From: a bacterium | GTDB lineage: Bacteria; Patescibacteriota; Microgenomatia; UBA1400; PJMF01 | Assembly: GCA_027620445.1 (NCBI GenBank) | Contig: JAQBYG010000003.1 | Location: 175-64,174, forward strand | Reading direction: 5' to 3' | DNA: 64,000 bases | Shown here: positions 7,120-54,418 of the stretch, piece by piece | Position numbering within the stretch: the stretch's first letter is position 1 | Layout: each line of letters begins with the position of its first letter | Position numbers and translations under genes: made by a program | Notes under the pieces: model-generated | Seen by the model: the letters and a program-made list of their open reading frames with translations, nothing else | The model's database searches: none | Told to the model about the DNA's origin: nothing

Positions 7120-8676
7120 CTAGAACTTGGTTATCTCCCACCCAGAACCATTCCACTCGACCAGAACTGTCTCTTCAGCAGTTCGATCGGCTGCTTGCGC
7201 AATAAAGTGAAACCGGCCTGCCTGTTGGCCATACCGAAAGCCTATCTGATTTGGTGCCTGGCGCACTACACTAGAGAAGTATTCACTCGGCGAGAGTTGG
7301 GCATACCACGCAGCCAAAATATACTGATAGCCACCACCATCCACAACTGCGACTTCTGCATCCGGGAATTCTTGCTTAACTTGTATCATTGCCTGCTCAA
7401 AACCAGGTTGAAACATAAGTTGATCACTTTTGTACTCTACAAAGTAATTCTGTGAGTAACGAAACAGTGAAAGCAGGCCAAGAACCGAGATGAGCAGCCA
7501 AAAGTGTTTGCCAACTCTTTTACTTATTGATTCATATGCTACTCCAGCCGAAGTTATCAGAAGGAAAAAGAAAAAAAGACTCCTGGTGGTATGTGGCGCA
7601 TCGGTGGTAATGCTAGACGGGAGAAGTGATATACCAAGTAGAAGCAAAAGAACAAACATTCTCCCCTGGTGACTTTTCCAGGGCTGACTCCAGTCAATGC
7701 GCTGTTTCAAGATTGTTGCGACTGCAAGCACGACCCCTATGAGAGCAAGGAGATACTGCCACCAATAAATATGCCCCCAATCTGGGACTGAGTGCCACGG
7801 ATGGGAGCCTCCCTCTGTAATCAGAAAACGAGGCGAAAATGCTCTGACTGCATTTGCTACTACCTCTGGTGCAAAAAAAATGACTTTATTGCCCAACACT
7901 TTTTGTAAGCCAGTCGGAAGTGCCGATCGATACTCATTGAAGGCAAGTGAGGCCTGCTCATCAGAAAAAAGCGTGATATTTTGTTTTTGTTCAAAAACTG
8001 GTTGTAGTAAAGCTAGCGCAAGCAGTGTGAGAAGAAGCCAGCCAGAAAATACAGGTGTCCACTTCCGCCAATATTTGTAGCCATGTACAAATATGATGAT
8101 CGGAAGCAGCAAAATACCTAAAAGGAGCGGTGAATTGTAAGTAAATACTGCTGCAGCATAAGCGGCTAGAATCACAAGTTTTTTCAACAACGTTGGTCTT
8201 AGTACGTCACTCAGTAGTGTGGTCAAGCTCAAAACGAAAAAAAGAAGGGCAACATTGGCCTCAAACGCGATCCGAGAGTAAAAAATAAAAACGGGGGCAA
8301 TTGCCAACATGGCCGCAAGAAATACTGCAGCCTGGTTTCTAAGCTTTAGTGTTCTTGCAAACCAGTAACCCACAACTAGTAAACCAATTCCGCTTAATGC
8401 AGATGGTATGCGAACCCAAAAGTCATTGAGTGGAACAATTTTGAAAAGAGCGGCCAACACTGCGGAATACCCAATCAGCTTGAAGTCGCCAAACGACTCA
8501 AGGCTCACTGGCCAAGGTCTCCCCCACTCGTCTTGTCCAACCGAACTGAGCAAATAGCCGTTATAGGCTAGGGCTGCCTCGTCTCGGTTGAGGATGCTCG
8601 GCAAAGATCCGAGTTGCCAAAAACGGGGAATCGCAAGTAACGGAATCACTAAAAGCAAGAAAAGGATTTTTTTCAT
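7120..8676 (-). CDS. GT-C membrane glycosyltransferase, ArnT/PMT_2 (GT39/GT83-like), family 1
   Basis: First-loop motif NRDEAALAYNGY...GQDEWGRPWPVSLESFGDFKLIGY, about 12 TM segments, C-terminal extracytoplasmic domain. Downstream member of tandem pair 1. Confidence 0.7.
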   Translation of the reverse strand: MKKILFLLLVIPLLAIPRFWQLGSLPSILNRDEAALAYNGYLLSSVGQDEWGRPWPVSLESFGDFKLIGYSAVLAALFKIVPLNDFWVRIPSALSGIGLLVVGYWFARTLKLRNQAAVFLAAMLAIAPVFIFYSRIAFEANVALLFFVLSLTTLLSDVLRPTLLKKLVILAAYAAAVFTYNSPLLLGILLLPIIIFVHGYKYWRKWTPVFSGWLLLTLLALALLQPVFEQKQNITLFSDEQASLAFNEYRSALPTGLQKVLGNKVIFFAPEVVANAVRAFSPRFLITEGGSHPWHSVPDWGHIYWWQYLLALIGVVLAVATILKQRIDWSQPWKSHQGRMFVLLLLLGISLLPSSITTDAPHTTRSLFFFFLLITSAGVAYESISKRVGKHFWLLISVLGLLSLFRYSQNYFVEYKSDQLMFQPGFEQAMIQVKQEFPDAEVAVVDGGGYQYILAAWYAQLSPSEYFSSVVRQAPNQIGFRYGQQAGRFHFIAQAADRTAEETVLVEWNGSGWEITKF

Positions 8677-10316
8677 TTTAGCCTACGTTCTATTGTAATG
8701 AGTTGACTCTCATCAGAGCTCGTTTTCGCAATAAACTCATACTCCATTAGTTCGTTCACTGAAAGAGTTGTGGAATCACCAAAGGTCAGGTTATCAAAAG
8801 TCTTTACTTGGTGATCATTGGCCAGCAGTGCTTGCAACTCTGCGGGAGAGTACTTCCCCGAGGCAAGGAACCAAAGAAACAATCTGTCATCATAGAAATC
8901 TATCAAAACTTTTTCCTCAGGTTGTCTCGTTGTTTCAACCAACGTTACAACTTGATCAAAACCTGCTTGCCAAGCTTTCCTGCTCGCAAGTTGGTATGAG
9001 CCAAAATAATAGTAAAAGTATGAAAAGATATCAAAACAAACAACTAGTACCCAACCAAGAAGTACTGCTCGTTGCCATGTTTGTTTGTGATTATTGAAAA
9101 TCTGAACAAATGCAAGAACCCCGAAGCTAACAAGACTCAAAATGGGAAACATTCCTGCCAGAGTTCTCATCGCGTGAGGAGTTTCCTCGGCTATTGAAGC
9201 CGGTACAACCGCCACAAGATACCATGTACTCAGCGCTAACAGCAGTGCTTTGTCTTTTTTCCAGAGTGAGTACGAACCCATGATGAAGAATGGGAGAAAA
9301 CTCAAAAGCATGAGTCCATGCTTGCCAGTTCCATGCCGCAAGTTGCTATCGCCCGTCAGAAACAGGTAGGTTGGATGCACATGGTCTGCCATATTTTTTG
9401 CGAAAGCTTGTAGTAAAAACACCTCTCGGTGAAAAACGAGCCAACTCAAAATTGAGTTGTCGGCTAACTCCTTATAGTGATTGGAGAGAGAAGCCTGAGT
9501 CATTTTTGCCTCAAAGCTAAGAACTGACTTTGCACTCAACCGTAAATTCTGACTTGCTTGATACCACTCAGAGTGAGTGAGTGGAAGCAGTAACAGCGCG
9601 TACACTCCAAGCATGCTCATACCAATGGTGCTCTGCTTCAGCAGAGAAAACAGTGATCTGTTTTTTTTCGCTACAAATGTGAAAAGGAAAAATACAACTA
9701 GAATTCCTGGCCAAATATATCGTGCTGCGAAGTAGGTATAGCCCGCCGAAGCGCCAAATAATACCGAGAGAAATAAAAATACGACTCCAAGAACTTTCTT
9801 GCTGGATGGTCGCATTGAAAGAAGTAAAAAAAGCACAGAAACCAATATCCATGCCTGACTTAACATAGATTCAAAAGCAATACGAGAAAAAAAGAATGAC
9901 CACGGAGCAAAACTAGTCACGACTAGAAAAGCGAGTGACAAAATCTGCCGTTGAGTTCGAGATAGGTGTTTTGCAAGCAACCAAAGAATGCCCAAGCCTG
10001 AAATCGTAGAGATGGCCCAGGCAAATACCGATACGAACCGAAGTGACCAACCGGAGACTCCAAATAGCAGTCCTGAGAAGGAAGCCAAAATCGGCAGTCC
10101 TGGTGCCTTGAAGTCACCGTAGGAAGGGTAGATCGGCTGTAGAAAAGAGTTGCCGTGCATGTCTTTGCCACTCTCGACGACAGTTTGCATGTCGATAAGA
10201 ATAGCTGTTTCGTCCCAATAGAGGCCAGGAGGGGCTTCGCCAAGTTTGTATAGTCGCAAGCATAGTCCTAGTAAGAACACTGATAATGCACTAAGTAAGA
10301 ATATTCGAGTCAGCAT
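8673..10316 (-). CDS. GT-C membrane glycosyltransferase, ArnT/PMT_2-like, family 1
   Basis: YWDETAILID...GKDMHGNSFLQPIYPSYGDFKAPGL motif and a conserved PHAMRT motif later. 4-nt overlap with the downstream paralog. Confidence 0.65.
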   Translation of the reverse strand: MLTRIFLLSALSVFLLGLCLRLYKLGEAPPGLYWDETAILIDMQTVVESGKDMHGNSFLQPIYPSYGDFKAPGLPILASFSGLLFGVSGWSLRFVSVFAWAISTISGLGILWLLAKHLSRTQRQILSLAFLVVTSFAPWSFFFSRIAFESMLSQAWILVSVLFLLLSMRPSSKKVLGVVFLFLSVLFGASAGYTYFAARYIWPGILVVFFLFTFVAKKNRSLFSLLKQSTIGMSMLGVYALLLLPLTHSEWYQASQNLRLSAKSVLSFEAKMTQASLSNHYKELADNSILSWLVFHREVFLLQAFAKNMADHVHPTYLFLTGDSNLRHGTGKHGLMLLSFLPFFIMGSYSLWKKDKALLLALSTWYLVAVVPASIAEETPHAMRTLAGMFPILSLVSFGVLAFVQIFNNHKQTWQRAVLLGWVLVVCFDIFSYFYYYFGSYQLASRKAWQAGFDQVVTLVETTRQPEEKVLIDFYDDRLFLWFLASGKYSPAELQALLANDHQVKTFDNLTFGDSTTLSVNELMEYEFIAKTSSDESQLITIERRLK

Positions 10317-10343
10317 ACTGTTGTTCTATCATATCCAATCTGG

Positions 10344-11906
10344 GTGAGCACAACAATAGTGTATGATTACAAGGTGCGTACCTGGAAAAAACTTTTTACT
10401 CCAGCTTTTTTTGTATTTATTTTTTCGCTGATACTCCATTTTTACTTTGCTAGCACACATATTTTTTTGTCTCAAGACTTATCTCGAGATTTATATTTGA
10501 TTGAGGAATTTAGAGAATCGGGTCAATGGCTTATCTCTTATGGTCCCAAGGCAAGTGTGGGAAATTTCTATCTTCCTCCTTTTTATTACCAGCTATATAT
10601 AGTCGTCCATTCACTTTTTCCTTCTCCGATAAGTATGACGATTGTAATAACTCTTATTAAGTCTCTTACTCCAGTTCTCGTTTACCTTTTGTGCAAATCT
10701 TTGCTAAGTAAAAAAGCTGCAGTCGTTGCTGCAGTCGTTGCGGCGTGCTCTCCTCTAGCAGTGATTTTTGGCTCTTTTTCCTGGAATCCTAACATGGTGC
10801 CATTTTTTTCTCTCTTAAGTTTATTACTTCTTATGAAGTATCAGCAAAAGCTTAAATGGGAATTCTTAGTACTCTCTCTTATCAGCTTCATGATTGCATT
10901 TCAGCTCCACTATCAGGCCACTGTGCTTACTCCTGTTTTTGTTATTCTTGCCTTAAAACAAATTTTTTATCAACAATTTAGACCCAATCATTGGATTATT
11001 GGTGCTTTGGTAGCCATGCTACTTATGGTTCCCTATGCAATAGCTGAAGTGGGGAGTAATTATCAAAATTCTAAGGCAGTGTATAACTTCGTCACAGAAG
11101 AACACTCCCGCTACTTTGATAGAATCTCAAAGCCTTATTTTGTACTTACTTTTGTTCCAGCGTTTTTTGAACGCGTAGTTCTCGGGAACAATACTGATTA
11201 TTTTTGGTTGGGAAGATTTCTTCTGTTCTTTGGCCTACCAGTTCTCATTGTGCATTCATATAAGAGAAGGCAATTTCTCCCGTTTTTGTATTTTCTAAGC
11301 ATCTTATTTATGCTTCGAATCTATAAGGGAGACAAGGTAGACTACTACATGTCAACACTATTTGTTCTTCCTTCATTATTACTAGCAGCTGTTTTTCACT
11401 GGAAAAAATATGTTGCTTTGCCACTTATTTTTTACACACTCTTATCAAGCGGCGTGTATCTCGGAAAAATTGAGCGTGTAAATGATTTAAAGGAAATTGA
11501 AGCAGTGCTTGCTTTGTTGGAACAAGAACTGCCCAATAGACGGGCTCGTTTTATTCTCCATGACGATGACTTTGCGAACACTATAGCTTATGTGATGAAA
11601 AAGGCAAATATTCGTATTGACCAGAATTCACTGGTGATTGTAGACGTCTGCAAAAAAGACCAGCCATGCATTCTGTATCCGACTACGTTTTCAACTAGAA
11701 CTAAGATGGAAGCATTCACTTCTGAGCTTCGCAGAACAGGAAAGTATCACTACGTTACCACAATCACCCCTGAGACGCTACCGTTTATCCTTCATGTAGG
11801 CTATCTAGAACAATCTCCAGAGCGCACAATTAATCATCCACTCTTGCGGGAGAAAGACGAACAACAATTTGGTTCAGATATACTATTGAAGGAACTTTTT
11901 GAATAA
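10344..11906 (+). CDS. Polytopic membrane protein, GT-C-like, family 3 (paralog of 58774)
   Basis: Apparent GTG start. Motif SQDLSRDLYLIEEFRESGQWLISYGPKASVGNFYLPPFYY parallels GDQGRDALVV...GNLYLGPFYYY in ORF 58774. About 12 TM segments. Confidence 0.5.
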   Translation: MSTTIVYDYKVRTWKKLFTPAFFVFIFSLILHFYFASTHIFLSQDLSRDLYLIEEFRESGQWLISYGPKASVGNFYLPPFYYQLYIVVHSLFPSPISMTIVITLIKSLTPVLVYLLCKSLLSKKAAVVAAVVAACSPLAVIFGSFSWNPNMVPFFSLLSLLLLMKYQQKLKWEFLVLSLISFMIAFQLHYQATVLTPVFVILALKQIFYQQFRPNHWIIGALVAMLLMVPYAIAEVGSNYQNSKAVYNFVTEEHSRYFDRISKPYFVLTFVPAFFERVVLGNNTDYFWLGRFLLFFGLPVLIVHSYKRRQFLPFLYFLSILFMLRIYKGDKVDYYMSTLFVLPSLLLAAVFHWKKYVALPLIFYTLLSSGVYLGKIERVNDLKEIEAVLALLEQELPNRRARFILHDDDFANTIAYVMKKANIRIDQNSLVIVDVCKKDQPCILYPTTFSTRTKMEAFTSELRRTGKYHYVTTITPETLPFILHVGYLEQSPERTINHPLLREKDEQQFGSDILLKELFE

Positions 11907-11909
11907 AAT

Positions 11910-13598
11910 ATGAATACACTCAAAAAACATTTCGTGTCTCTTGCAGTACTATTGCTACTTGCAGGACTGGGCAGCATCCCGCTCTTTCATACTGGATTGT
12001 ACACTGCTCATGATATTTGGCATCAAGTTGCTCGTCTCTATCACTATAGTACGCTTGTTTCTCTTGGTGAATTTCCTCCTCGATGGGTATTTGACTTGGC
12101 ACAAGGATTTGGTTATCCACTTTTCTTTTTTTCCTATCATTTTCCTTGGTTTTTTGGCAGCCTATTAGTAGCTCTTGGATTGACGATTGCTGATGCTCTC
12201 AAGTTGTTGTTTGTAGTGGGTTACTTTGCTGCGGGTTTCAACATGTACTGGTTGATGTACACACTAACAAAAAAACGAGTTCCAAGTTTGATTGCTGCCA
12301 TTACATATAACTGGTCGCCCTACTTTTTTCTCGCCATGTATGTTGCTGCTGCAATTGGCACTGTTTTTACATTTGCACTCTTACCAGTCCTGATTCTTGG
12401 TCTATATTATTTGTCTCAAAATAAATTTGTTATTGGCAGCGTGTTACTGGCCACTGGACTTTCAGCTGCCTTGCTCACACATGTTCTCACTCTCACATTA
12501 CTCATTCCGTTGCTTGGAAGCATTTGGGTGCTGGGTCTCCACAAGAGCAAAGAACGACATAAATACCTTATCTGGAGTACTATTGCTGGTATTCTCGCTC
12601 TTGGATTGAGCGCCTTTTACTTACTCCCGCTGCGTTCATATCTTCCACTCATTGCTGCAAGCACAGAATCTGGGGGCTTAACGAATAACTACACAAACTA
12701 TTTTGCATCTCTCAAACAACTAGTTTACTCATCTTGGGGATTTGGTCCTATCGTATCAGATGCGAAACAAGGAGAAATTTCACTGCAAGTAGGAATTGCC
12801 CAGTGGCTCGGAGCAGTACTTGCGGTTGCATTACTAGTTGTAACAACCTTTTTCTATAAAAAGGAACTTTTTCGAGCACATTTCTCAAGCAAAATGCGAG
12901 CAGCACTTTTACTATACCTCCTCCTATTTCTCTTAAGTATTTACTTCATGCTAGATATCTCCCAACCATTTTGGTTACTGTGGAGCAAGGTACTTCCACT
13001 CGACTTTCCGTTTCGTCTCTTACTCATGAGCGTCTTTGTTGGTTCACTTCTGATTGGTCTTGGACTTGCAAGTCTCAAAAAAACTTGGTTGCAGTATTTT
13101 CTCGGAGGTAGTCTCGTTATGGTTGCGCTCTACACCAATCGCAATCACGTTCGAGTTAATCTGTACACTGACATCCCACTAGACCTATATATTGTATCTG
13201 AAACTACAACCAACACATATCACGAATATATGCCAAGATCAGCTGACACCTCTGTGCTCAATCAGGACGTGCAAAGTTTTATTCCTGACGAACCGACTTT
13301 CGTATTTTCCGAGCACAGATCACCGACAGGAGTCACAGCCACAGTTGTTTTTCCTGAAAATAAAAGTATTGCAGTTCGCCAATTTGCGTTTCCAGGTGTC
13401 ACCGTCAGGATTAATGGAGAAATTAGAAACACTCAAGTCGATGATAAAGGGAGACTGGTTGTGCTTTTTCCTGCTGGGAAATATCAAGTATCATTGAGCT
13501 ACGAAAAGCCAGCGATTGTTGCTCTTTCAGAGTACATTTCTTTAGGTTCGGTCGGTATACTACTCATACTCATTCTTCTAAGAAAGAAACTAAAATGA
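11910..13598 (+). CDS. Large polytopic membrane protein, paralog family A
   Basis: HDIWHQVARLYHYSTLVSLGEFPPRWVFDLAQGFGYPLFFFSYHFPW signature. C-terminal domain with PAGKYQVSLSYE, matching PAGEYQVSTRF in ORF 3667. Confidence 0.5.
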   Translation: MNTLKKHFVSLAVLLLLAGLGSIPLFHTGLYTAHDIWHQVARLYHYSTLVSLGEFPPRWVFDLAQGFGYPLFFFSYHFPWFFGSLLVALGLTIADALKLLFVVGYFAAGFNMYWLMYTLTKKRVPSLIAAITYNWSPYFFLAMYVAAAIGTVFTFALLPVLILGLYYLSQNKFVIGSVLLATGLSAALLTHVLTLTLLIPLLGSIWVLGLHKSKERHKYLIWSTIAGILALGLSAFYLLPLRSYLPLIAASTESGGLTNNYTNYFASLKQLVYSSWGFGPIVSDAKQGEISLQVGIAQWLGAVLAVALLVVTTFFYKKELFRAHFSSKMRAALLLYLLLFLLSIYFMLDISQPFWLLWSKVLPLDFPFRLLLMSVFVGSLLIGLGLASLKKTWLQYFLGGSLVMVALYTNRNHVRVNLYTDIPLDLYIVSETTTNTYHEYMPRSADTSVLNQDVQSFIPDEPTFVFSEHRSPTGVTATVVFPENKSIAVRQFAFPGVTVRINGEIRNTQVDDKGRLVVLFPAGKYQVSLSYEKPAIVALSEYISLGSVGILLILILLRKKLK

Positions 13599-14311
13599 AA
13601 AAAGTAATCGCAATCATGCCTGCATTCAATGCAGCGAAGACATTAAAAAAAACAGTCCTCGATATCCCAAAAGGAATCGTGGATGAAATCATATTAGTCG
13701 ATGATAATAGCTCCGATGACACCACCGCTGTCGCTCGAGAGTTGGGGTTAACCGTTGTTGAACATCCAATGAATCGTGGGTATGGCGGAAATCAAAAAAC
13801 ATGTTACACCCTAGCACTTTCAAATAAAGCAGATGTTATCGTCATGATTCATCCAGACTATCAGTATGATAGTCGTCTTACCAAAGCAATGGTGCAACCG
13901 ATCCTCGATGGACACTTTGACCTGATGCTCGGCTCACGTATTAGAAGTCGTGCGGAAGTGCTTGCCGGTGGCATGCCAAAGTACAAGTATTTTGGCAATC
14001 GTTTCTTGACCTTGGTTGAAAACCTTATTTTGGGACAAAATCTCTCTGAATACCACACTGGATTTCGAGCCTACAATAGCAAACTCCTCAAGTCCTTGCC
14101 GTTTCATCGCTACTCAGATGATTTTGTCTTTGATTCTCAAGTTATCTTCGGCGCTATTGCCAAAAATGCTCGCATTGGCGAAGTGGCTGTGCCAGTACGT
14201 TACTTTGCTGAAGCTTCATCCATAAACTTTATTCGCTCCTGTATTTATGGTCTGTCTATTTTGAAAGATTTAGGAATTTACCTAGTGAGTGCAGGCAAAG
14301 CATTTGTATGA
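13595..14311 (+). CDS. GT2 Dpm1/GtrB-like polyprenyl-phosphate sugar synthase
   Basis: IMPAFNAAKTL...LVDDNSSDDT...HPDYQYD motifs. ATGA overlap with the upstream family-A membrane gene. Confidence 0.75.
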   Translation: MKKVIAIMPAFNAAKTLKKTVLDIPKGIVDEIILVDDNSSDDTTAVARELGLTVVEHPMNRGYGGNQKTCYTLALSNKADVIVMIHPDYQYDSRLTKAMVQPILDGHFDLMLGSRIRSRAEVLAGGMPKYKYFGNRFLTLVENLILGQNLSEYHTGFRAYNSKLLKSLPFHRYSDDFVFDSQVIFGAIAKNARIGEVAVPVRYFAEASSINFIRSCIYGLSILKDLGIYLVSAGKAFV

Positions 14312-15555
14312 AGAAGTTGCTGCTCTCATTCATTATTTTCCTCTTCGCTTTCTCACGTTTATTTATTTTTCTTAACCCACCACAATATTATTCTGATGTT
14401 ACTGCAGATTATGAGCGCTACGCCAATATGTGGCGTTATGGCTTGACGCCATACCTTGAACATCTCTATGAGTATCCTCCTGCTAGTGTCCCCCTGCTTT
14501 CGCTACCTTTAACGTTTGACCAAGCGGGTTTTGGCAAGTATTACTCAAATTATAGATTGCAAATAGTAGTAATAGATATACTCTTTTTTCTATTCTTGCT
14601 TCAATATATCTATAGACAGAAGATGAAGTATGGCGCAGCTGGTCTTCTTGGCTATATTGCACTCACTACGTTTGCCAAAGACTTTTTGTACGAAGGATTA
14701 GATCTTGCCTTTAGTGCTAGCTACATTGCTGGGGTTTTAATCCTGAGCAAGCAAAAGGATTCATCTCTCTTACAAATTTTTGCCGCCTGGACATTGTTCT
14801 GGCTCTCAACCGCTATCAAATTTTTGACTTTCCCACTAATTATTCCTTTGTTTTTTGCGACCATGTGGAAAAAGAATGCTCTGACAAAGACGTCGGTTAT
14901 TCGCACCTCAATCATTGCCTGTTGCTCGTTCTTGCTTGTTTGGGGAGTACCTCTTGCTGTTTACCGCAGTTCTTTAAGTGTTAGCTTTGTACATAACTTT
15001 GGCAGACCTATCAAGTATGCTTCATTTCCTGCTCACGTCATTCGTTGGGTGAACACCTTTACAGAATCTGAGTCGCAAAACATGGTGGCGCCTGATTTTG
15101 AGTATGTTGGTCCTGTTTCGAAACAAGTAACTAGATGGGTATCGATAATTTTCCCACTTGCGATTCTTGCTTTTCTTATTTGGAGCAGTGTTTTATATTT
15201 TCGACAAAAATCATTTACACAAAAGTCGAAACAGACATACTTGATTGCTACTTTTGGCACTTATGTGTTTTTGTTATTTATTACCGCAAAAACATTCTCT
15301 CAGCCATTTCATATTTGGTATCTCACCCTGTTACCAATTCTGGCATTTAAACAAACCAGAGAGTCATTGCTTGTGTTAGCCACCATGTTGCTACTTGTAG
15401 TTCTTGATACAACTACACTTCTCGCTGTTCATTCAGAATTTAAACTGTTTGCAGTAATCCCACTTGGTCTAATGCGAGACTCTTTGCGCTTCATTCCTAT
15501 GTTTGGTTTTATTTGGTATTTTTTACGCTACCATGAAACGCATTCTCGGCCTTAA
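14308..15555 (+). CDS. Polytopic membrane protein, DUF2029/GT87-like GT-C candidate
   Basis: YERYANMWRYGLTPYLEHLYEYPPASVPL resembles the conserved loop of GT87/DUF2029 (PimE-like) mannosyltransferases. 415 aa, multi-TM. Confidence 0.45.
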   Translation: MKKLLLSFIIFLFAFSRLFIFLNPPQYYSDVTADYERYANMWRYGLTPYLEHLYEYPPASVPLLSLPLTFDQAGFGKYYSNYRLQIVVIDILFFLFLLQYIYRQKMKYGAAGLLGYIALTTFAKDFLYEGLDLAFSASYIAGVLILSKQKDSSLLQIFAAWTLFWLSTAIKFLTFPLIIPLFFATMWKKNALTKTSVIRTSIIACCSFLLVWGVPLAVYRSSLSVSFVHNFGRPIKYASFPAHVIRWVNTFTESESQNMVAPDFEYVGPVSKQVTRWVSIIFPLAILAFLIWSSVLYFRQKSFTQKSKQTYLIATFGTYVFLLFITAKTFSQPFHIWYLTLLPILAFKQTRESLLVLATMLLLVVLDTTTLLAVHSEFKLFAVIPLGLMRDSLRFIPMFGFIWYFLRYHETHSRP

Positions 15556-20627: not shown

Positions 20628-22317
20628 GAAACAATACCTTCTGCTAATATCTATCCTACTCCTCGCTTTTACAATCCGCATCTTCATGCTCGACACTGCC
20701 CCCAGTGGAGCACTAGTCGATGAAGCTCACTTTGGCTTTATTGCAAAATCTTTACTTGAAACAGGTCGAGACGAACACGGAGTACTTTTTCCTCTGATTT
20801 TTAAAGGCTTTGGCGACGATAAGTTGCCCGCGATGGCGTATTTCATGACGCCATTTGTAAAATTGCTCGGACTCTCAATTTTCTCGATAAGATTTCCTTC
20901 GGTGTTAATTGGCACGGGCATCGTTTTTGCAATCTTTGCACTCTTAAGGGAGCTAAAGTTTTCAGCCAAACTAAGTTTGTTTGGTTCATTAATTGCAGCT
21001 ATTAGCCCATGGACATTTGTTCTGAGTCGTTTTGGTTTTGAGTCGAACTTGGCTTTACTACTGTTCATTATTGGCTTGATTTTTTTCTTTCGTTTCCAAT
21101 CCCGTAAAAATACAGCAGCAGCCATTCTCGCCGGCATATTTTTCGGCAGCACATGGTATACCTACATTGCATACCGACCAATTACAATAATTTTTGCAGC
21201 TTTGTTGGCAGTAATACTCTGGCGCACAAATATTTCAAAGAAATTGAGAAAGTCTTTCTTTATTTTTTTTATAACACTGGCGATTTGTATTTCCCCACTG
21301 TTCTTGCCAGGTGCTGTCAAAAGTAATGCTACCCGCCTCAAGCAAGTTGGCATTTTTTATGATCCAGGTCTGGTGATGAGAGTAGATGAAAACCGCACAT
21401 TTTGTGACATGAAGTTTGACCGCAATATTTGCGACATCGCATTTAATAAGCCAGTGGTACTTCTTACTTCCCTTTTGGATCGCTGGGCATACATGCTTTC
21501 ACCGCAGTATCTAGCCACACAAGGTGAGCTTGACCAACCAATACTCAATAGCGCAGGCTTTGGGCAGTTTTTTCCAGCCGCTTATGTGCTACTAATTCTT
21601 GGCTTGTTTGCCATTGTAGTTTCTACTCTGCTGGGAAAGGGCACCGTTCTCACACACTCCGTTCTGGTTGGCCTACTAGTGAGTCCCCTTCCTGCATTGC
21701 TCGTTGGTCAACCTCAGCGCGTACGACTTTCCGTGCTCTTTCCATTTGCACTTGTCACTATCGTGTATGGGTTGCAATACCTACTTCAATTGATTGTTCG
21801 CCCTGTATGGCAAAAAGTAGTAGTAGGAATAATCTTCTCTTCACTTATTTTTTATACCGGACTCTATCTGACTGATTTTTGGAGTGTGCACACCATCAAG
21901 CGCGAAGCATCATATGAATCCTATCTCCCAGGACTTTTTTCCTACCTAAATGAATACCCCATTGATGATGAAAATGTCGAAATTGTTTTCAAATCATTCT
22001 TTTCTGACCCATTGATGTTCTATGCTTTTTATACCGATATGGATCCTCATCAGTATCAAAAGTTGGCAGGACTCGGCGAGCTCGAAGCCTCAGGCTTTCA
22101 ACATACTACTCGATTAGGAAACATGAGAGTAGTAAATTCACCTGATATTATTGCACTCGGATGTGCGGGGAGAGCAGAGCAAAAACAAGTACTCCTTGTA
22201 ACTGATCAACCAGAGGAAGCTCCCGAACTTCATCGAGAGATATCGAGTAATGGTGTACACACCTATCTTTTTGTTTACGACGCAACTGGCGCCATCGTCA
22301 CAGGACAATGTCAATGA
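20626..22317 (+). CDS. GT-C membrane glycosyltransferase, ArnT/PMT_2-like, family 1
   Basis: LVDEAHFGFIAKSLLETGRDEHGVLFPLIFKGFGDDKLPAMAY. Upstream member of tandem pair 3. Confidence 0.7.
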   Translation: MKQYLLLISILLLAFTIRIFMLDTAPSGALVDEAHFGFIAKSLLETGRDEHGVLFPLIFKGFGDDKLPAMAYFMTPFVKLLGLSIFSIRFPSVLIGTGIVFAIFALLRELKFSAKLSLFGSLIAAISPWTFVLSRFGFESNLALLLFIIGLIFFFRFQSRKNTAAAILAGIFFGSTWYTYIAYRPITIIFAALLAVILWRTNISKKLRKSFFIFFITLAICISPLFLPGAVKSNATRLKQVGIFYDPGLVMRVDENRTFCDMKFDRNICDIAFNKPVVLLTSLLDRWAYMLSPQYLATQGELDQPILNSAGFGQFFPAAYVLLILGLFAIVVSTLLGKGTVLTHSVLVGLLVSPLPALLVGQPQRVRLSVLFPFALVTIVYGLQYLLQLIVRPVWQKVVVGIIFSSLIFYTGLYLTDFWSVHTIKREASYESYLPGLFSYLNEYPIDDENVEIVFKSFFSDPLMFYAFYTDMDPHQYQKLAGLGELEASGFQHTTRLGNMRVVNSPDIIALGCAGRAEQKQVLLVTDQPEEAPELHREISSNGVHTYLFVYDATGAIVTGQCQ

Positions 22318-24002
22318 ATACTTTTGGCATCTTTAATCGGCCTGGAGTTTTGTTATTCATAGCAATTTTTGTCGGCTTCATGTTACGCGTCTTACTCCTC
22401 GACTTTATTCCGCCAGGATTTAACTGGGACGAAGCATCTGTGGCGTACAACGCTTTCACACTAGCCCAAACCGGCAGAGATGAGTTTGGCAGAAGTTGGC
22501 CACTCATTATCGAATCATTTGGAGACTACAAAACAGGTTTATATAGTATCCTTTTGGTTCCGTTTATTAAAACTTTTGGCCTTTCAGTGTTTGTCGCTCG
22601 ATTTCCTAACGTTCTGGTGGGCGTCCTGACAATTATTGCCAGTTACTATTTTGCAAGACAATACTTTACTAGACAGCTTCCTGCCGCATTAGTCGCATTA
22701 TTAATTGCCATTTCTCCCTGGGCTATTCATGTTTCTCGTTTTGTTCTCGAGTGGCACCTGGGCATACCGCTTACAATTTTTGCTGGAGCATTTTTACTGC
22801 AAGCAAAAGAGCATCCAAAACGACTATTAATTTCAGCAGTTTTTTTTGCAAGCGCTCTGTACTTTTACCACAGCTTGAGATTATTTATTCCACTCTTGCT
22901 TCTCACACACTTGGTGCTGAATAAACACTGGTTCCTCGAACATAAAAAGGAGGTAGTTCTCAGTGCTGTTCTCGGGTTTTTTGTGGCACTTCCATTTTTA
23001 TTTTCAGCATTTTCAAATAACATTTTCGCTCGTCCTGCAGCTGTCTCTATTTTTAATGTTGGCAATGCTGGATTGGCAAGAGAAGGACAGTATAGACAGA
23101 CAGTGTCTCACCTGCCAATATTCGCACTTATAAATAACACGCCTACAGTCTACGCCCAAGAGTTCATCGCAAGATATCTAGCACATTACTCCCCACAATT
23201 TTTATTTACAGGCCAACTACAAGCCTCTCCTAGAACGGCGATAGAAAGAGTCGGTTTACTCTACCTCGTTTCGTTGCCTTTTCTAATTATTGGTCTCTAT
23301 GCATCAGCTCAAAAAAGTACAGAAAGAACGCGCCTTGCGTTCACTTGGCTCCTACTAGCTCCCGTAGCTTCGAGCTTGTCACAAGACTCACCACACGAAT
23401 TGAGGAGCCTCCTTTTTCTTCCCATTTTTCAAATTTTTACTGTATCAGGGATGTTGTTTGTCTGGAAAAAAGTACGCACTCAGAACAAATTATTGCAAAG
23501 AGGGTTTGTTGTAGGGATATTTCTCATGTACCTCCTGCAGTTGCTTTTCTTTCTCAATCGTTACTACTTGTTTTACCCAGAAGAAACTGCGTTGAATTGG
23601 CAAGCAGGTTATGCTGAGCTAGTGCAGCAGATACAAGATTACGAACCATTTTTTGATACCATTATCATTACCACTGGGTACGGGCAACCACACATATTTT
23701 TCGCCTTTTTTGGCACAATTGATCCGACGATATACCAACAAGCAATTCAAGATCAAAATGCTCAATTTAACGGCAGAATTGAAAGTTTGGGCAAACTACA
23801 TTTTGCAGAGGGATCTCCTAGTGATCTCTGTCAGCCGAACACGCTGGTTGTCACCACTCACAGAGGCTTAGATCAAGAATTCAAACCGTTTGATACGATT
23901 ACTACCCTCAATAGGTTTCATGAACCCGAACCACTTTTTAAATTTTATGCTTCCAGTGACCCTCAAATAATAGCAACATGCACGCAAAACTCAACGCTAT
24001 AA
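22308..24002 (+). CDS. GT-C membrane glycosyltransferase, ArnT/PMT_2-like, family 1
   Basis: NWDEASVAYNAFTLAQTGRDEFGRSWPLIIESFGDYKTGLY and PHELRS motifs. 10-nt overlap with the upstream paralog. Confidence 0.7.
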   Translation: MSMNTFGIFNRPGVLLFIAIFVGFMLRVLLLDFIPPGFNWDEASVAYNAFTLAQTGRDEFGRSWPLIIESFGDYKTGLYSILLVPFIKTFGLSVFVARFPNVLVGVLTIIASYYFARQYFTRQLPAALVALLIAISPWAIHVSRFVLEWHLGIPLTIFAGAFLLQAKEHPKRLLISAVFFASALYFYHSLRLFIPLLLLTHLVLNKHWFLEHKKEVVLSAVLGFFVALPFLFSAFSNNIFARPAAVSIFNVGNAGLAREGQYRQTVSHLPIFALINNTPTVYAQEFIARYLAHYSPQFLFTGQLQASPRTAIERVGLLYLVSLPFLIIGLYASAQKSTERTRLAFTWLLLAPVASSLSQDSPHELRSLLFLPIFQIFTVSGMLFVWKKVRTQNKLLQRGFVVGIFLMYLLQLLFFLNRYYLFYPEETALNWQAGYAELVQQIQDYEPFFDTIIITTGYGQPHIFFAFFGTIDPTIYQQAIQDQNAQFNGRIESLGKLHFAEGSPSDLCQPNTLVVTTHRGLDQEFKPFDTITTLNRFHEPEPLFKFYASSDPQIIATCTQNSTL

Positions 24003-25456
24003 CCAAACAACGGCTTGTGTATGCAGCCCTGTTCGCAGGCATTGTATTACTGCAAGTCATTTTCACAATGCTGTCGAGTGCATTCATAACCCACGAAGAA
24101 CTAGCCGAGTCAGTTCGCAATGTGTGGTGGTTACACAATAATAATATCTATGACGGAATCTCGAGCAATGTCGGCTGGTATATGTCAGTTCTTGCTGCAT
24201 ACAACCTATTCGGCTTTTCTCTCTTTATGGGAAAGGCTGTAAAATTGGTGATTTTTGCAATGGGATTGACATGTGCTTTTGATTTATCACTTAAATATGT
24301 TGGGAGAAAATTCGCCTGGGTGCCACTCATACTATTCGGACTCTCTCCCTCCCTACTCTATTTCAACACACTGCAAACAAGCTTCGCAATAGATGTTCCG
24401 TTCTTTTTTATATCAGTCTGGCTATTGGAAAGGTTTTCGACATCAAACAGAGTTATTATATTACTTCTTTTTGGTTTTGTGCTTACACTTGCGTCACTGT
24501 CGTACCCAGCATTTATTCTGTACCTTCCAGTTCTTGGAATACTTTTTGTCCACAGCATTCTCACCTACAAATCAAAACGTATCGCTATTGCAACACTCAC
24601 TCTCGGGTTGCTGCTACCTGTTCTGTTTTTGTTACTCTATTTGAAAGAGCCAAGCAGGCTATTGTTCGATCCCCAGGTAAACTCTGGCGTTTTTCGGGGT
24701 GGAGGTACGTTTCCAGACAATTGGAGTGAAGCTGCATCAAACATTCGCAGTGGAGCGCATATTCTCTACACGGACTTGTTTGTCGTTCCACAGAGTTACT
24801 ACTTTGATGCTGCTAGAAGTGAGTTTTCACATTGGATGACTCGATTCAGCGTCTACCTTGTTTTTATACTTGCTTGCGTGCACATCATCAAATCTCTGCT
24901 ACAAAAAAATTACTTCAAACTGTACATACCAGTTTTAGCTTTTTTTTCTCTGCTTGTCGGAGGCATACTTGCCAACTTAAGCAACTGGTTCCCAGGATTA
25001 CGCAGAGCTACGATTCTTTTGATTGCATTTTATGTTCTCATCGCGTGGTTATTCAGATTATTGCAAAGAAAAGAACTCGGACATATCTCAGCTATTGCTT
25101 TGATTGGGGCCTCCCTTATTATTATTCTCCACCACCTGAAAGTAATTCCTCCGTCTCTTGCCGCTTTATCCGTTGCCAATAAAAATTCTGAGCTGGCTTG
25201 CTTTAACATCTCAGGTGCGTATCCCGCGGAATCTCTAGAAATGCTACGCGCACAGATGCAGCTTGGCGGCACGCTTGACCTGAGTCTAGTACCGAATGCT
25301 AATGACTGTCGTTTGGCAGAAATTTACACCGCAATAGCTAGTGATTGCTACTGGAATGAGAGGGATTGCAAACTCATTCTGTGGCATGACGAGAAATCAA
25401 ACAAAACTATCCCATTGCAAACAACTCTGTGGGATTCATACTACTTCCCACATTAA
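23978..25456 (+). CDS. Polytopic membrane protein of unknown family (possible GT-C glycosyltransferase or polymerase/ligase)
   Basis: 492 aa, at least 10 hydrophobic segments, no recognised motif. It is embedded between GT-C genes. Confidence 0.4.
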   Translation: MHAKLNAITKQRLVYAALFAGIVLLQVIFTMLSSAFITHEELAESVRNVWWLHNNNIYDGISSNVGWYMSVLAAYNLFGFSLFMGKAVKLVIFAMGLTCAFDLSLKYVGRKFAWVPLILFGLSPSLLYFNTLQTSFAIDVPFFFISVWLLERFSTSNRVIILLLFGFVLTLASLSYPAFILYLPVLGILFVHSILTYKSKRIAIATLTLGLLLPVLFLLLYLKEPSRLLFDPQVNSGVFRGGGTFPDNWSEAASNIRSGAHILYTDLFVVPQSYYFDAARSEFSHWMTRFSVYLVFILACVHIIKSLLQKNYFKLYIPVLAFFSLLVGGILANLSNWFPGLRRATILLIAFYVLIAWLFRLLQRKELGHISAIALIGASLIIILHHLKVIPPSLAALSVANKNSELACFNISGAYPAESLEMLRAQMQLGGTLDLSLVPNANDCRLAEIYTAIASDCYWNERDCKLILWHDEKSNKTIPLQTTLWDSYYFPH

Positions 25457-27084
25457 TAAGTGATTGCCTGTCCCCCAACCATCACAGTCCAAGAAGTTTG
25501 GTCAGAATCTGGTGTAGCCAGAATCCTCACTGCATCACTCTGGGGCAGATCACTTTCAGAGTTAAAAAAGCGAATAGCATTAAACTCTAAAAACTCTCCC
25601 TGATCTTTCTTCACAAACTCGTCTGCAGCCTGTACCAAAGCTGGATCTGTCTTCGTAAAAAACCAGTAGTACATCGCCGGCCTACCAGCTGCTCGCGAAA
25701 CATACACCGGCAAATCTGGATGCTCGAGCATAGTCTTTTCGAGCGACGAAATCATGTCTGAATACCCATACTGCCACTCTCTTGCCGAAATTGTTGGGTA
25801 CACTTTGCTGTAATACAACCAAAATGAGCTGAGTTCGGCTGCATAGATGCTAATAATTGCCAATGTTAGTAGTGACAAGCGAATTTTGTGTGGCCGAAAC
25901 ATACTCACGAGCACTTCTATTCCCTCAGCAATCACGAGGACCAAAACAGGAAACAAGGTCATACTGCGCAATGCATGAGGTGCCCCGGTGCTGATAGAAG
26001 CCGGTAACACTGCAACTACCGCGACTATGAGAAGCAATGCTCGCAAAGCGTCGCGCTTCTTCATCCAAACAAAAAACCCAATCACAACAAAAAGTAACTC
26101 TACATGATAAAGATGGCCAAAAAACTGCACTGAGTGACGTACCTGTGAATCACCTGACTGAAACAAATACTGTGGTGAAAAATGAGCCAAGGCATTACTC
26201 AAAATTTCTTTTCCAAACAACACAGAGCGATGATAAATCAGTCGAGAAACAAATGAATAATCTGCTTGCTCGCGCAAATCGTTGCTTTCAAGAATGATAG
26301 AGACATCGCTAAAGATACTGGTCTCGCGCGAGCGTTGCAAAATTTCTGGGGAAGAAATCTTTAACAATAACGGTACTACAGCAACTACTGCCAATAAAGT
26401 TATTGCCGCGAGTTGCCGCCAAGCGGAAGGAGCCAGCTTCTTTAAATCGAGACTCTTTGCCACAAAAACAACTAGTGCCAATCCAACCAAAGGACCGACA
26501 ATTCTTGCGGCATGATAGGTGTACAGCGAGAGTACTAATAAAAGAACTGCAGCAGCAAAGTTTTTACTCTTGAATTTACTCTGAGAGCCAACTGTCGCTA
26601 CTCCAAAATACACCCCCCACACAATCAGGGCTGTCGCCACATGCGCCTCCCACCCCGCTCGAGAAAAATGAACTGCCCATGGTGCTATCGCAAGAACAGC
26701 CATTGCAATAAGCGGATTCTGACCAAGCCGTTTTGCTAGTAAATAGATTGCAAACAACATGCTGATGCCTGCCAACAAAGAAGGCATTCGCACTGCCACT
26801 GCACTCAGGTCAAACAAGGTGATAAATGGAATGATTAGATAGGCATACAGTGCTGGCTTCCAATCCCCAAAAGACTCGAGCGCGACAATGGGTAAAACAT
26901 TTCCATGATGATCAGCGCCTGTTTTCAGTAGGGAGTACGCATCGTATCCAAGTGCCACCTCTTCCCAATACAGTGAAGGTGGGTTGGCACCAAATTGAAA
27001 TAGTCGTAAATACAGTGCCAGTCCGATAATACCGATAAAAAATACTTTATTTCGTAACATAGATCTCAAACCTTGGGTCGCCAT
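25453..27084 (-). CDS. GT-C membrane glycosyltransferase, ArnT/PMT_2-like, family 1 (WEE variant of the acidic motif)
   Basis: YWEEVALGYDAYSLLKTGADHHGNVLPIVALESFGDWKPALYAY and PHALRS motifs. Downstream member of tandem pair 4. Confidence 0.7.
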   Translation of the reverse strand: MATQGLRSMLRNKVFFIGIIGLALYLRLFQFGANPPSLYWEEVALGYDAYSLLKTGADHHGNVLPIVALESFGDWKPALYAYLIIPFITLFDLSAVAVRMPSLLAGISMLFAIYLLAKRLGQNPLIAMAVLAIAPWAVHFSRAGWEAHVATALIVWGVYFGVATVGSQSKFKSKNFAAAVLLLVLSLYTYHAARIVGPLVGLALVVFVAKSLDLKKLAPSAWRQLAAITLLAVVAVVPLLLKISSPEILQRSRETSIFSDVSIILESNDLREQADYSFVSRLIYHRSVLFGKEILSNALAHFSPQYLFQSGDSQVRHSVQFFGHLYHVELLFVVIGFFVWMKKRDALRALLLIVAVVAVLPASISTGAPHALRSMTLFPVLVLVIAEGIEVLVSMFRPHKIRLSLLTLAIISIYAAELSSFWLYYSKVYPTISAREWQYGYSDMISSLEKTMLEHPDLPVYVSRAAGRPAMYYWFFTKTDPALVQAADEFVKKDQGEFLEFNAIRFFNSESDLPQSDAVRILATPDSDQTSWTVMVGGQAITY

Positions 27085-28618
27085 TGCTCCCCATTACAAT
27101 ATGATCGGCTCGATCTGCCGGCAAGCCTTGACTTGGTGTGGCAACCACTAAAGTGTTGACCCGATTCAAATCACCTACAGAGATCCTATCAGAAAACTCA
27201 TATGTATTGAGTGATCCTCCCTGATACCAAATCGGGTTTGTTTTACGCACAAATAATGCGTAAATATACGGTTGGCCGTACTCACTGCTGAAGAGAATTT
27301 TATCTACCTTTGGCTTATTACTCTGTCCTAACTCAAACTCACGAGCAATGGAAAACGCTTCTATGTACCCATCTTGAAACGCAACAGCAGACTCTTTGGC
27401 AAACTTTGAAAAATACGCTTGTTCATATGAGATGAAGAAAAAGACATGAAGTAATACGAGTAATCCTAGTAGCGATTTTTGCAGCATTTGACCTTGCTTT
27501 GTTACTAGTTTTATAAGAAGCACTCCACCAACAACTGCTAACAAAATGAAACCAAGAACAGCAAACAGCCCTCTGTTACTATGCGGCGCCTCTGTAGCCA
27601 AAATGGCAGGTGCGCTGCCTACAACTACCAACAGTACTGCAAACATGGTTGCCCTACCCTGTTCTTTGAGCCAAACACTTAGGGGCAAGGCAATCACGCA
27701 CAAAACATAAGTGGTTGGGTGCAAAAATCCCCAAACTACACCCCCATCACGCAGTGTCGCAATGTTTTTACCAAGTAAGAGGAAAGCGGGGCTCAACTGT
27801 GCAAAAAAATTACCTACAAGCATTTGCAGCAAAGTAGACAGTGAGTAATTTTGATTAAAAAGTAAGACACCTGCTCTTGTGGCGCCAGGACCAAACAGCG
27901 AATCTCTCAAGAGCGGAATGAGTAGGAGTAGCGAAACCAAACCAATTAGCAGTATACGCAACACCGATTTTTTACTTGACTTGATCGCAAACAGAAACAC
28001 CACAATACTCATAATCGGTACAACAATTTTTGCACTGTGATAGGTGTAGATAGATGCCGAGAGCAACACAGCAGATCCGAACCCATTCACTAACCACCAT
28101 ACTAATCTTTTTGCTCGCAAGGCTCGGGCTAATAACAACCATCCCCAAACAGCAAAAGCTAGACTTAAACCAGATTCAAATGCTATTCTCGAGTAATGAA
28201 TGTGCCAGGGATTGAGCGCCAACATGCTTCCTGCTACTAGCGATAGCTCCACAGAAAATCTTTTGAAAACTCGTAATTCGTGCTGTAGAAGAATCCAACC
28301 CAGCACAGCAAAAACCCCAGCGATGGCGAACGACAAACGGACAGCAAATGGAGTCAGACCAAATAAATAAGTAAATGGACCATTCAAATAAATAGCTAGT
28401 GGCGCCTTGTAATCGCCAAACGATCTAAAAGAAACAGGCAAACGTACAATCCACTCGTCTCTACGGGTAGTCAAGATAGCATAACCGTTGTAACCGATCG
28501 CTGCTTCATCCCAGGTCAATCCATGAGGAACGCTGCCAAGCTGATAAAAACGAGTTGCAATGGCAAGAACCACGATCCCAAACAAAAACAAAAAAAACTT
28601 GCGTGACCACATCTGCAT
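27047..28618 (-). CDS. GT-C membrane glycosyltransferase, ArnT/PMT_2-like, family 1
   Basis: TWDEAAIGYNGYAILTTRRDEWIVRLPVSFRSFGDYKAPLAIY and PHSNRG motifs. Overlaps the downstream paralog. Confidence 0.7.
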   Translation of the reverse strand: MQMWSRKFFLFLFGIVVLAIATRFYQLGSVPHGLTWDEAAIGYNGYAILTTRRDEWIVRLPVSFRSFGDYKAPLAIYLNGPFTYLFGLTPFAVRLSFAIAGVFAVLGWILLQHELRVFKRFSVELSLVAGSMLALNPWHIHYSRIAFESGLSLAFAVWGWLLLARALRAKRLVWWLVNGFGSAVLLSASIYTYHSAKIVVPIMSIVVFLFAIKSSKKSVLRILLIGLVSLLLLIPLLRDSLFGPGATRAGVLLFNQNYSLSTLLQMLVGNFFAQLSPAFLLLGKNIATLRDGGVVWGFLHPTTYVLCVIALPLSVWLKEQGRATMFAVLLVVVGSAPAILATEAPHSNRGLFAVLGFILLAVVGGVLLIKLVTKQGQMLQKSLLGLLVLLHVFFFISYEQAYFSKFAKESAVAFQDGYIEAFSIAREFELGQSNKPKVDKILFSSEYGQPYIYALFVRKTNPIWYQGGSLNTYEFSDRISVGDLNRVNTLVVATPSQGLPADRADHIVMGSNGDPRFEIYVTK

Positions 28619-31316: not shown

Positions 31317-31325
31317 AGACCTTCC

Positions 31326-32240: not shown

Positions 32241-32243
32241 AAA

Positions 32244-43981: not shown

Positions 43982-44316
43982 ATACATTGTGGTTCGAACA
44001 GTATGCCTCAGACAGCCTCTTTAACTCAGTGGTTGATGGGTTTGTAGAAGTGCAGCAAGTTGCAGCAAGTCAAAAGCTGCTTGCCATTTTAGAGCTAGCA
44101 GCAAAAGCTCTCTTGATTGAAGAAACTGAAGAAGCGTATCAGGCAGACGTAGCCCAGTTACTAAGCACCGGCTCTGCAGAAGAGATCAACGACTGGCTCG
44201 TAAACCAACCACTTTCGATTATCAACTCGCTCAAAGAACGTCTTGATCGCACAATTCTCCAAGTGCAGGCGCAGCTTGCAGCAAAGGGTAGCTCAGTTAT
44301 ACTCCAATCAACATGA
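43978..44316 (+). CDS. Hypothetical protein (113 aa)
   Basis: Start taken at the ATG at 43978 (ATGA overlap with the upstream stop) rather than track 43924. Acidic and helical, with no motif. Confidence 0.3.
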   Translation: MNTLWFEQYASDSLFNSVVDGFVEVQQVAASQKLLAILELAAKALLIEETEEAYQADVAQLLSTGSAEEINDWLVNQPLSIINSLKERLDRTILQVQAQLAAKGSSVILQST

Positions 44317-51748: not shown

Positions 51749-51776
51749 GGACAGTAGCTTCAGCACACTACTGTCC
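51749..51776. terminator. Perfect 9-bp inverted repeat, GGACAGTAG - 10-nt loop - CTACTGTCC, at the convergent gene junction
   Basis: Read directly in the sequence. It overlaps the last five codons and the stop of the racemase gene. No T-run flanks it on either strand, so it is a hairpin rather than a canonical intrinsic terminator. Confidence 0.35.
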
Positions 51777-54334: not shown

Positions 54335-54418
54335 GCTGGCTCCTTTACTATGAAAAGAGCTTACGCAACAAAGTTAGGGAAATAAATGAATCAACTTAAT
54401 TCATTGCTATGACAATTG

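Follow-up and report, generated by a model that had tools for sequence, protein, structure and literature searches.

ArnT, the closest structural relative of the proteins described here, is regarded as a monomer, and the arn operon carries a single arnT, compared with eight related paralogs in the locus of this study. In Pmt1-Pmt2 (GT39; PDB 6p25) two paralogous subunits heterodimerise, and mycobacteria have the tandem paralogs embCAB with an EmbA-EmbB heterodimer (PDB 7bvf). The active-site acidic dyad of such GT-C glycosyltransferases lies in the loop between the first two transmembrane helices (TM1 and TM2), as D55/E56 in ArnT and D77/E78 in Pmt1, and the carrier phosphate is contacted by ArnT K85 (PMC7801869). 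Here we analysed a stretch of 64,000 nucleotides of contig JAQBYG010000003.1, called the window, which contains a family of eight ArnT-like paralogs (F1) arranged as four adjacent same-strand pairs (A to D). On balance, we favour the view that the eight genes encode separate, competent ArnT-like GT-C enzymes in the pathway of a peptidoglycan-linked wall glycopolymer of a Patescibacteria (Paceibacteria-type) bacterium, and that the pairs are operon neighbours.

The window comes from a bacterial chromosome and carries trmD, gltX, dnaX, ddl, murI and one tRNA-Gln. Close homologues of its proteins are found in Patescibacteria, whose genomes are about 1 Mb in size. A contig of “Candidatus Paceibacterota bacterium CG_2015-01t_44_17” is collinear with the window at ~70% amino-acid identity, while proteins identical to those of the window have been deposited as “MAG: hypothetical protein O2840_00965/01000 [bacterium]”.

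The F1 proteins are ~520-590 aa long, and their open reading frames (ORFs) were verified at the coordinates given below, which bears out the four same-strand pairs recognized in an initial annotation of this DNA. The true start of 18813 (genes are named by window coordinate) is the ATG at 20594, not 20696, which gives a protein of 593 aa identical to NCBI protein P0351. The 22308 ORF encodes 564 aa, and the database protein P0001 starts two codons later, at ATG 22314. The eight paralogs, with a distant ninth member, are as follows.

7120-8676, minus strand: F1 “A-down”; loop-1 dyad RDE; PMT_2 match of 27.6 bits; ATGA overlap with 8673.
8673-10316, minus strand: F1 “A-up”; WDE and GKDMHG; heads the minus-strand run down to 925.
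17163-18812, minus strand: F1 “B-down”; NDE and SFIDPKP, PH lost; PMT_2 and PMT matches above cut-off; abuts 18813.
18813-20594, minus strand: F1 “B-up”; HDE, AELP in place of FGDxKP, conserved C-terminal cysteines; the most divergent paralog.
20626-22317, plus strand: F1 “C-up”; VDE, GFGDDKLP and PQRVR; PMT_2 match of 43.9 bits.
22308-24002, plus strand: F1 “C-down”; WDE; the paralog most similar to the others, with its structure modelled.
25453-27084, minus strand: F1 “D-down”; WEE and GADHHG; ends the minus-strand run beginning at 36281.
27047-28618, minus strand: F1 “D-up”; WDE and RRDEW; comes after the conserved GT2-GT4-GT2 backbone genes.
55176-56762, minus strand: distant ninth F1 member; ADE; hhalign 99.6% against the F1 profile; PMT match of 25.3 bits.

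All eight paralogs are mutually homologous according to BLASTP (E 1e-5 to 1e-51, identity 22-35%), and a paralog resembles its partner no more closely than it resembles paralogs from the other pairs, as had been noticed before. The ninth gene sits in a second module together with genes for an MptA/B-like protein, a GT2, a GT-C and a DPMS-like GT2, and has orthologs in loci L005/L006. All nine genes encode an xDE dyad, the acidic loop-1 feature of GT-C enzymes, with EE in the case of 25453, and the motifs G-x-D, FGDxK(P) and PHxxR(S) are found in F1, with losses in 18813, 17163 and 20626. Dyads and motifs are thus as described in the initial annotation, except that the VDE of 20626 was not listed there and the start of 18813 was misplaced. 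Pfam gives weak PMT_2 or PMT matches for six of the eight proteins, four of them above cut-off; 8673 and 18813 have no match, and 25453 and 27047 stay under the PMT_2 cut-off. A profile search spanning 1.84 billion representatives returned 69,896 F1 family members at E<=1e-3 and 9,138 clusters (50% identity) at E<=1e-30, with members labelled “hypothetical” or “ArnT-like/GT39 family” in the databases. A literature search returned no study of the F1 family and nothing specific on GT-C expansions in Patescibacteria/Paceibacteria.

The AlphaFold2 model of 22308 (pLDDT 95, pTM 0.93) has its best PDB match in ArnT (5f15/5ezm; E 5e-8, TM-score 0.52-0.57), followed by STT3/AglB/PglB, Pmt4, ALG9, DPY19 and the Aft/Emb enzymes. 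The model of the divergent 18813 shows an equally confident GT-C fold (pLDDT 93.7), and the 21-24 PDB matches of the two models at E<=1e-3 are all GT-C enzymes. ArnT 5ezm is also the only significant PDB match of F1 by sequence (E 2.7e-4). The ArnT/PMT-like GT-C identity proposed in the initial annotation is therefore borne out by Pfam, PDB matches and models. In both models the helix that comes next after TM1 has the DE dyad at its N-terminus: W38-D39-E40 follows helix 10-26 in 22308, and H42-D43-E44 follows helix 3-30 in 18813. The mapping onto ArnT and Pmt structures that had been suggested earlier accordingly places the dyad in the first extracytoplasmic loop, and the GT-C assignment therefore stands. 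The FGDxK lysine, present in seven of the eight paralogs, is aligned with the Lys of the ArnT KPP motif (SEQRES position 88) and probably corresponds to K85, the ligand of the carrier phosphate; the spacing from DE to this lysine is 34 residues in F1 and 30 in ArnT. Because the alignment of an N-terminal-only profile in the PDB search stops short of the ArnT DE region, the equivalence of the dyads rests on topology, spacing and the literature. In an alignment of 116 sequences that includes all eight paralogs (residues counted from Met-22314), R25, E40, D56 and R364 are invariant, and conservation reaches at least 90% at D39, K73, S141/R142 and E146.

Could some of the paralogs be regulatory pseudo-enzymes, as the initial annotation suggested? 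The departures occur at positions that are otherwise conserved, and the candidates would be 18813, which lacks the FGDxK lysine, and 25453 with its WEE. We consider this extremely improbable, since the variants are conserved within their own orthogroups and the invariant residues are retained in all eight proteins. WEE and GADHHG are kept in 25453 orthologs at 55-66% identity (WEE in L007 and L001), NDE and SFIDxKP are kept in the 17163 group, and VDE and PQRVR in the 20626 group. The 18813 type, for which the model is that of a GT-C enzyme, constitutes a 40-member subfamily without the lysine but with invariant residues of its own, namely D43-E44, A78-E79 (in AELP), N139-P140-W141, R147, R375 and the C-terminal cysteines. 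Pfam barely covers this subfamily: three of its 40 members match GtrII (PF14264) and two match PMT, the window protein matching neither. By these patterns of residue conservation, the variants are to be read as functional specialisation.

The overlapping or abutting junctions reported for all four pairs are present in the sequence. In pair A (8673 to 7120) the genes share an ATGA (4-nt overlap), and in pair B (18813 to 17163) they abut as TAAATG, with AGGAG, a Shine-Dalgarno sequence, 7 nt upstream. Pair C (20626 to 22308) overlaps by 10 nt, or by a 4-nt ATGA if ATG 22314, the start of P0001, is used, and pair D (27047 to 25453) by 38 nt, or 14 nt with ATG 27060. The initial annotation took these overlaps as a sign of co-translation and possibly of heteromeric complexes. 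The latter reading is not supported, because across the window 25 of 42 junctions between same-strand neighbours show overlap or abutment and 38 of the 42 are <=15 nt, with every gene type involved; overlap is therefore not special to the F1 pairs. Pair D is the last part of a nine-gene minus-strand run from 36281 to 25453, and pair A the first part of another nine-gene minus-strand run from 10316 to 925. Pair C belongs to a plus-strand run of three GT-C genes (20626 to 25456), in which 22308 overlaps the next gene, 23978-25456, by 25 nt, and pair B forms a bicistron (20594 to 17163). The four pairs are thus neighbours in long, tightly packed operons rather than isolated bicistrons. As 23978 also encodes a GT-C protein, the region 17163-28618 consists of seven consecutive GT-C genes. 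The clustering of F1 genes is not due to chance: when eight labels are placed randomly on the 28 cluster genes, all eight fall in same-strand F1-F1 junctions with P~0.002.

Several features of these junctions may be recorded. Only 31 nt (20595-20625) separate 18813, with its start at 20594, from the divergently oriented 20626. A TAGGCA-18-TATAAT match has its end at 20617, 9 nt short of the ATG of 20626, and hints at a leader that is very short or missing; the promoter scan as such is at chance level (38 sites vs 38.9 expected). Many genes of the window have no obvious Shine-Dalgarno sequence. Convergent genes overlap at their 3' ends by 59 nt (15503-17221 on the plus and 17163-18812 on the minus strand) and by 4 nt (23978-25456 on the plus and 25453-27084 on the minus strand).

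The comparison with related genomes separates the F1 genes into two sets. The congeneric contigs L004, L007 and L011 are collinear with the window, and only three genome loci came out of a locus search with the 22308 orthogroup. One backbone order persists in distant relatives, GT2-GT4-GT2-27047-25453-...-8673-(7120)-GT2-GT4. In L012, where F1 identity is 35-39%, one strand carries GT2(30501)-GT4(29416)-GT2(28620), a 27047-like gene, a gene for 666 aa, a 25453-like gene, argS, 8673-like and 7120-like genes, GT2(6320)-GT4(5280), 3667-like and 2511-like genes and an epimerase gene. This is the minus-strand order of the window with 10344-25456 removed and a single argS in its place. Because L012 has them as one series, pairs A and D correspond to its two halves, which in the window are separated by an island. 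For the P0116 contig, gene sizes and Pfam matches alone indicate this series as well. In L013 (~40-45% identity) the same backbone harbors a different island at the same site, with 10344-, 11910-, 13595-, 20626- and 18813-like genes; here a GT2 gene comes immediately after the 8673-like gene, and the 25453-like gene has an additional F1 gene after it. Orthologs of 27047 occupy the same backbone position in L001, L007, L012 and L013. The island of the window and two of its GT-C genes outside F1 are listed here.

10344-25456, no strand assigned: variable island, flanked by backbone genes 25453 and 8673; GC 40.9% vs 44.4% in both flanks.
10344-11906, plus strand: GT-C belonging to a second PMT_2 family, with 58774-60288 as its paralog; hhalign 99.6% against F1.
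23978-25456, plus strand: distant GT-C paralog; HEE in loop 1; hhalign 94%, E 1e-7 against F1; conserved downstream neighbour of 22308.

The island comprises pairs B and C, the GT-C genes 10344, 11910, 15503 and 23978, the GT2 gene 13595 and the gene 14308 of unclear family, and it behaves as a variable glycan island. The genes 27047, 25453, 8673 and 7120 form the conserved backbone series, and the other four F1 genes lie in the island. The ~666-aa gene between the 27047-like and 25453-like genes of L012 (4381-6381) has no Pfam match on record and no homolog in the window; the P0116 contig has, between its pair-D genes and pair-A-like genes, a gene for 676 aa in opposite orientation, likewise with no Pfam match on record. 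L010, from a more remote Patescibacterium, has three consecutive F1 members beside two YfhO-like genes.

These comparisons bear on the idea that partners are obligate heterodimers of the Pmt1-Pmt2 or EmbA-EmbB type, with translational coupling giving a 1:1 stoichiometry, at least in pairs A and D. The partner genes are adjacent and overlapping, the overlap of pair A is kept in L011 (4 nt) and in L012 (10 nt, at 35-37% identity), and pair D is adjacent in L001, L007 and L013. Moreover, 6p25 and 7bvf are among the fold matches, and a passage of PMC8035078 speculates that small GT-C enzymes may need partner proteins. However, overlap is the norm for all gene types, and the pairs themselves come apart. 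Pair C is confined to the genus and broken in L001, L002/L009, L003/L008, L005, L006 and L013. Pair B is likewise not intact in L003/L008 and L013, nor is pair A in L013, and pair D is split by the 666-aa gene in L012. The 18813-like and 20626-like genes of L013 have no F1 partner, and the 20626 ortholog of L002 is without a 22308-like partner. In addition, both partners have full sets of catalytic motifs, ArnT was solved as a single chain, and no double-length fusion is found among the top 150 matches of the profile search, where a fusion would score highest. We therefore consider obligate heterodimers rather unlikely; a reading of the pairs as heteromers is tempting but unsupported.

The phylogeny of the family was analysed with neighbour-joining (NJ) trees with bootstraps, calculated on trimmed MAFFT alignments for three samplings of 31, 67 and 94 sequences. 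Six paralogs group with their own orthologs from other genomes at 86-100% bootstrap; among them are the 25453 orthogroup (86-98%), the 7120 group with orthologs in L011 and L012 (100%) and the 8673 orthogroup, which is widespread in Patescibacteria (18 sequences, 99%; P0121 matches at 100%). Support for the 20626 group outside its genus is 52-65%, and for 17163 there are only congeneric orthologs (100%) and a weaker relative in L001. Identity is 35-70% to orthologs elsewhere, compared with the 22-35% between paralogs. By these sequence relationships the F1 paralogs are ancient.

The deep nodes between paralogs are unresolved across the three samplings, and no grouping of different paralogs is stable across trees. 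In the initial annotation the pairs were attributed to an ancient duplication of a two-gene unit, which should be visible as separate clades of upstream and downstream members. The age of the paralogs agrees with this proposal, but the trees lend no support to the duplication of a unit: an upstream clade was recovered in 0/200 NJ bootstraps and a downstream clade in 0-1/200 (two gamma settings). In its full form, with one ancestral unit duplicated three times, upstream members mutually orthologous and likewise the downstream members, the model would explain why all eight genes stand in same-strand pairs, and one small tree loosely joins 27047 with 20626 (up) and 22308 with 25453 (down) at 17% support. 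The best-supported grouping across pairs, in contrast, unites 8673 (up) with 25453 (down) at 59-76%, which contradicts the model, and falls to 18% with denser sampling. Partner-sister groupings are absent except for a weak and method-sensitive one of B-up and B-down (28-61%), which points to a local tandem duplication. Finally, the 25453-like and 8673-like genes of L012 are neighbours, with argS between them, within a series of four F1 genes. An origin of the four pairs from one duplicated unit is thus very improbable. We also considered 8673 and 25453 as sisters from an ancient tandem duplication and rejected this candidate on its loss of support with denser sampling.

In which pathway would the eight enzymes act? 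A glycan-biosynthesis cluster covers most of 900-37,400 and 55,200-64,000, so that ~45 kb of the 64-kb window is devoted to glycan assembly. It contains GT2 and GT4 genes, rmlB/C/D, other epimerase genes, a Wzx-type flippase, a ligase of the LytR-CpsA-Psr (LCP) type and very many multi-spanning glycosyltransferases, including 16 genes of the GT-C superfamily linked by hhalign, where four PTPS_related/YfhO-like genes reach 97% against F1. The other components are listed below.

28620-33140, minus strand: backbone cytoplasmic glycosyltransferases GT2, GT4, GT2, GT2, GT2, in an order conserved across relatives.
33154-34626, minus strand: Wzx-type flippase (Polysacc_synt_3), E 6e-47.
36280-37413, plus strand: LCP ligase, E 3.8e-24; conserved beside the cluster in L002/L009.
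60301-61491, minus strand: polyprenyl-monophosphate sugar synthase, GT2 with a GtrA/DPMS transmembrane domain; full-length match to Pyrococcus DPMS (PDB 5mlz), E 1.3e-36; also ArnC and GtrB.

The protein encoded by 60301-61491 is likely to make a lipid-linked sugar donor, and the short GT2 proteins of 925-1590, 13595-14311 and 58013-58777 are paralogs of its catalytic domain. The presence of an LCP ligase implies that the glycopolymer is attached to peptidoglycan. We propose that the cytoplasmic GT2 and GT4 enzymes would build a lipid-linked precursor, which the Wzx-type flippase would export, while the DPMS/GtrB-like GT2 enzymes would make polyprenyl-phosphate-sugars. Each GT-C protein probably transfers one sugar from such a donor to a growing glycan at the outer membrane face; the paralogs would act sequentially, each adding a particular sugar, linkage or side chain, before the LCP enzyme ligates the product to peptidoglycan. 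The backbone tetrad would then carry out conserved steps, and the island a lineage-specific decoration that diversifies the glycan. The analysis itself establishes fold, motifs, orthogroups, synteny and junction statistics; donors, acceptor, order of action and the monomeric state of the GT-C enzymes are inferred.

Some points weigh against this proposal. A priming phosphoglycosyltransferase of the WecA/WbaP type was not identified in the window. What is known of the F1 enzymes comes from sequences and models, and donor and acceptor are read from gene context. The kept overlap of pair A at 35-37% identity and the adjacency of pair D in three relatives would also be compatible with specific partnerships, and the trees are NJ trees only, in which the deep relationships of the paralogs are undecidable either way.

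A different acceptor is conceivable as well, with the paralogs as PMT-like O-glycosyltransferases of surface proteins such as pili or S-layer rather than of a wall polysaccharide. The Pfam PMT/PMT_2 matches and the presence of Pmt4, Pmt1/2, oligosaccharyltransferases and DPY19 among the fold neighbours would fit. On the other hand, the genes lie among Wzx, LCP, rml and GT2/GT4 genes of polysaccharide synthesis, no MIR domain was found with Pfam, and the best match of 22308 is ArnT, an enzyme with a lipid/glycan acceptor. We know of no protein O-mannosylation system with eight or more paralogs, and we regard protein O-glycosylation as quite improbable here.

Three membrane proteins of unclear family, encoded by 14308-15555, 2511-3674 and 56740-58062, are conserved in the clusters, and all three have <50% probability against the GT-C profile in hhalign. 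The first has no family match, the second weakly matches models for “cell surface glycopolymer formation” and for LA_3751/2 putative glycosyltransferases, and orthologs of the third in L005/L006 match the Pfam MptA_B_family. Elsewhere in the window, 43982-44647 (666 nt, upstream of dnaX) is the largest non-coding gap of an otherwise very compact sequence, with neither an ORF of >=150 aa nor a tRNA, and without an Rfam match at the gathering threshold. Within 51760-55195, one minus-strand run encodes an Asp/Glu racemase, a D-Ala-D-Ala ligase and a VanX-like M15 D-Ala-D-Ala dipeptidase, adjoined by tRNA-Gln (54418-54489) and an OmpR-type Trans_reg_C domain protein (54515-55195); this arrangement resembles a van-type precursor-remodelling set. 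At the cluster edge (282-884), a 200-aa ORF weakly matches the AbiEi-family type IV antitoxins (E 7.5e-8, far under the curated cut-off).

The comparison with known systems starts with ArnT (GT83; PDB 5ezm/5f15), which shares with F1 a length of ~550 aa, a DE dyad after TM1, a C-terminal soluble domain and a K-P motif ~30 residues after the DE, which in ArnT binds undecaprenyl phosphate (PMC7801869). Identity, however, is 13-14%, the window has no arnA/B/D, and the acceptor of the F1 enzymes is presumably a wall glycopolymer. In NCBIfam there is no match of F1 to an ArnT model, only to Agl23/LA3751-type models far under cut-off. The F1 proteins are not ArnT proper. To our knowledge, Patescibacteria are without lipopolysaccharide, so that lipid A is no possible acceptor.

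Pmt1-Pmt2 resembles F1 in its loop-1 dyad and in the PMT/PMT_2 similarity according to Pfam. The structural alignment, however, covers ~265 columns with a TM-score of 0.32, and the acceptor of F1 is probably not a protein. Of the eight paralogs only 17163 passes the PF02366 cut-off (23.8 vs 22.7 bits), and none has a MIR match in Pfam. The F1 proteins are not PMTs, and by analogy they would work like GT-C transferases of the ArnT, GtrC or GtlB type.

The mycobacterial arabinogalactan/lipoarabinomannan set (EmbA/B/C, AftA-D, MptA/B, PimE) is similar to the locus in its many GT-C enzymes that use polyprenyl-phosphate-sugars, its peptidoglycan-linked heteropolysaccharide and its LCP ligation. In contrast, Emb and Aft proteins are much larger, possess carbohydrate-binding domains and match only weakly (E 0.015-0.09), and arabinofuranose or decaprenyl-phosphate donors are without evidence at the window locus. 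We consider it distinctly unlikely that the backbone partners, above all 8673/7120, are dedicated heterodimers in a locus that builds an arabinogalactan-like, largely extracytoplasmic wall heteropolysaccharide, with the island as a serotype or host-specificity cassette. If true, this would be an unusually GT-C-heavy bacterial glycan pathway, with a bearing on host attachment of episymbionts and on phage evasion.

The multi-component transmembrane glycosylation systems described in passages of PMC8035078 (CsbB/GtlA-GtcA-YfhO/GtlB, GacI/J/K/L, GtrA/B/C) have their component types all represented in the locus: a GT-A synthase of C55-P-sugar (60301 and the short GT2 proteins), a flippase (the fused GtrA-type transmembrane domain; Wzx), GT-C enzymes including PMT_2- and YfhO-like types, and LCP polymer attachment. 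By predicted gene content, the locus would fall under the definition of such systems given there. They use one GT-A and one GT-C per decoration, with up to three pairs in L. lactis (in the same passages of PMC8035078), compared with 16 GT-C genes here; with this number, assembly outside the membrane may account for the larger part of the glycan and not only for its decoration. The backbone tetrad, the variable island and the orthogroup signatures (WEE/GADHHG and the Lys-less AELP) are targets for studying the surface chemistry of uncultivated episymbionts, and the locus is notable for the number of GT-C genes in one place and for its architecture of backbone plus island.

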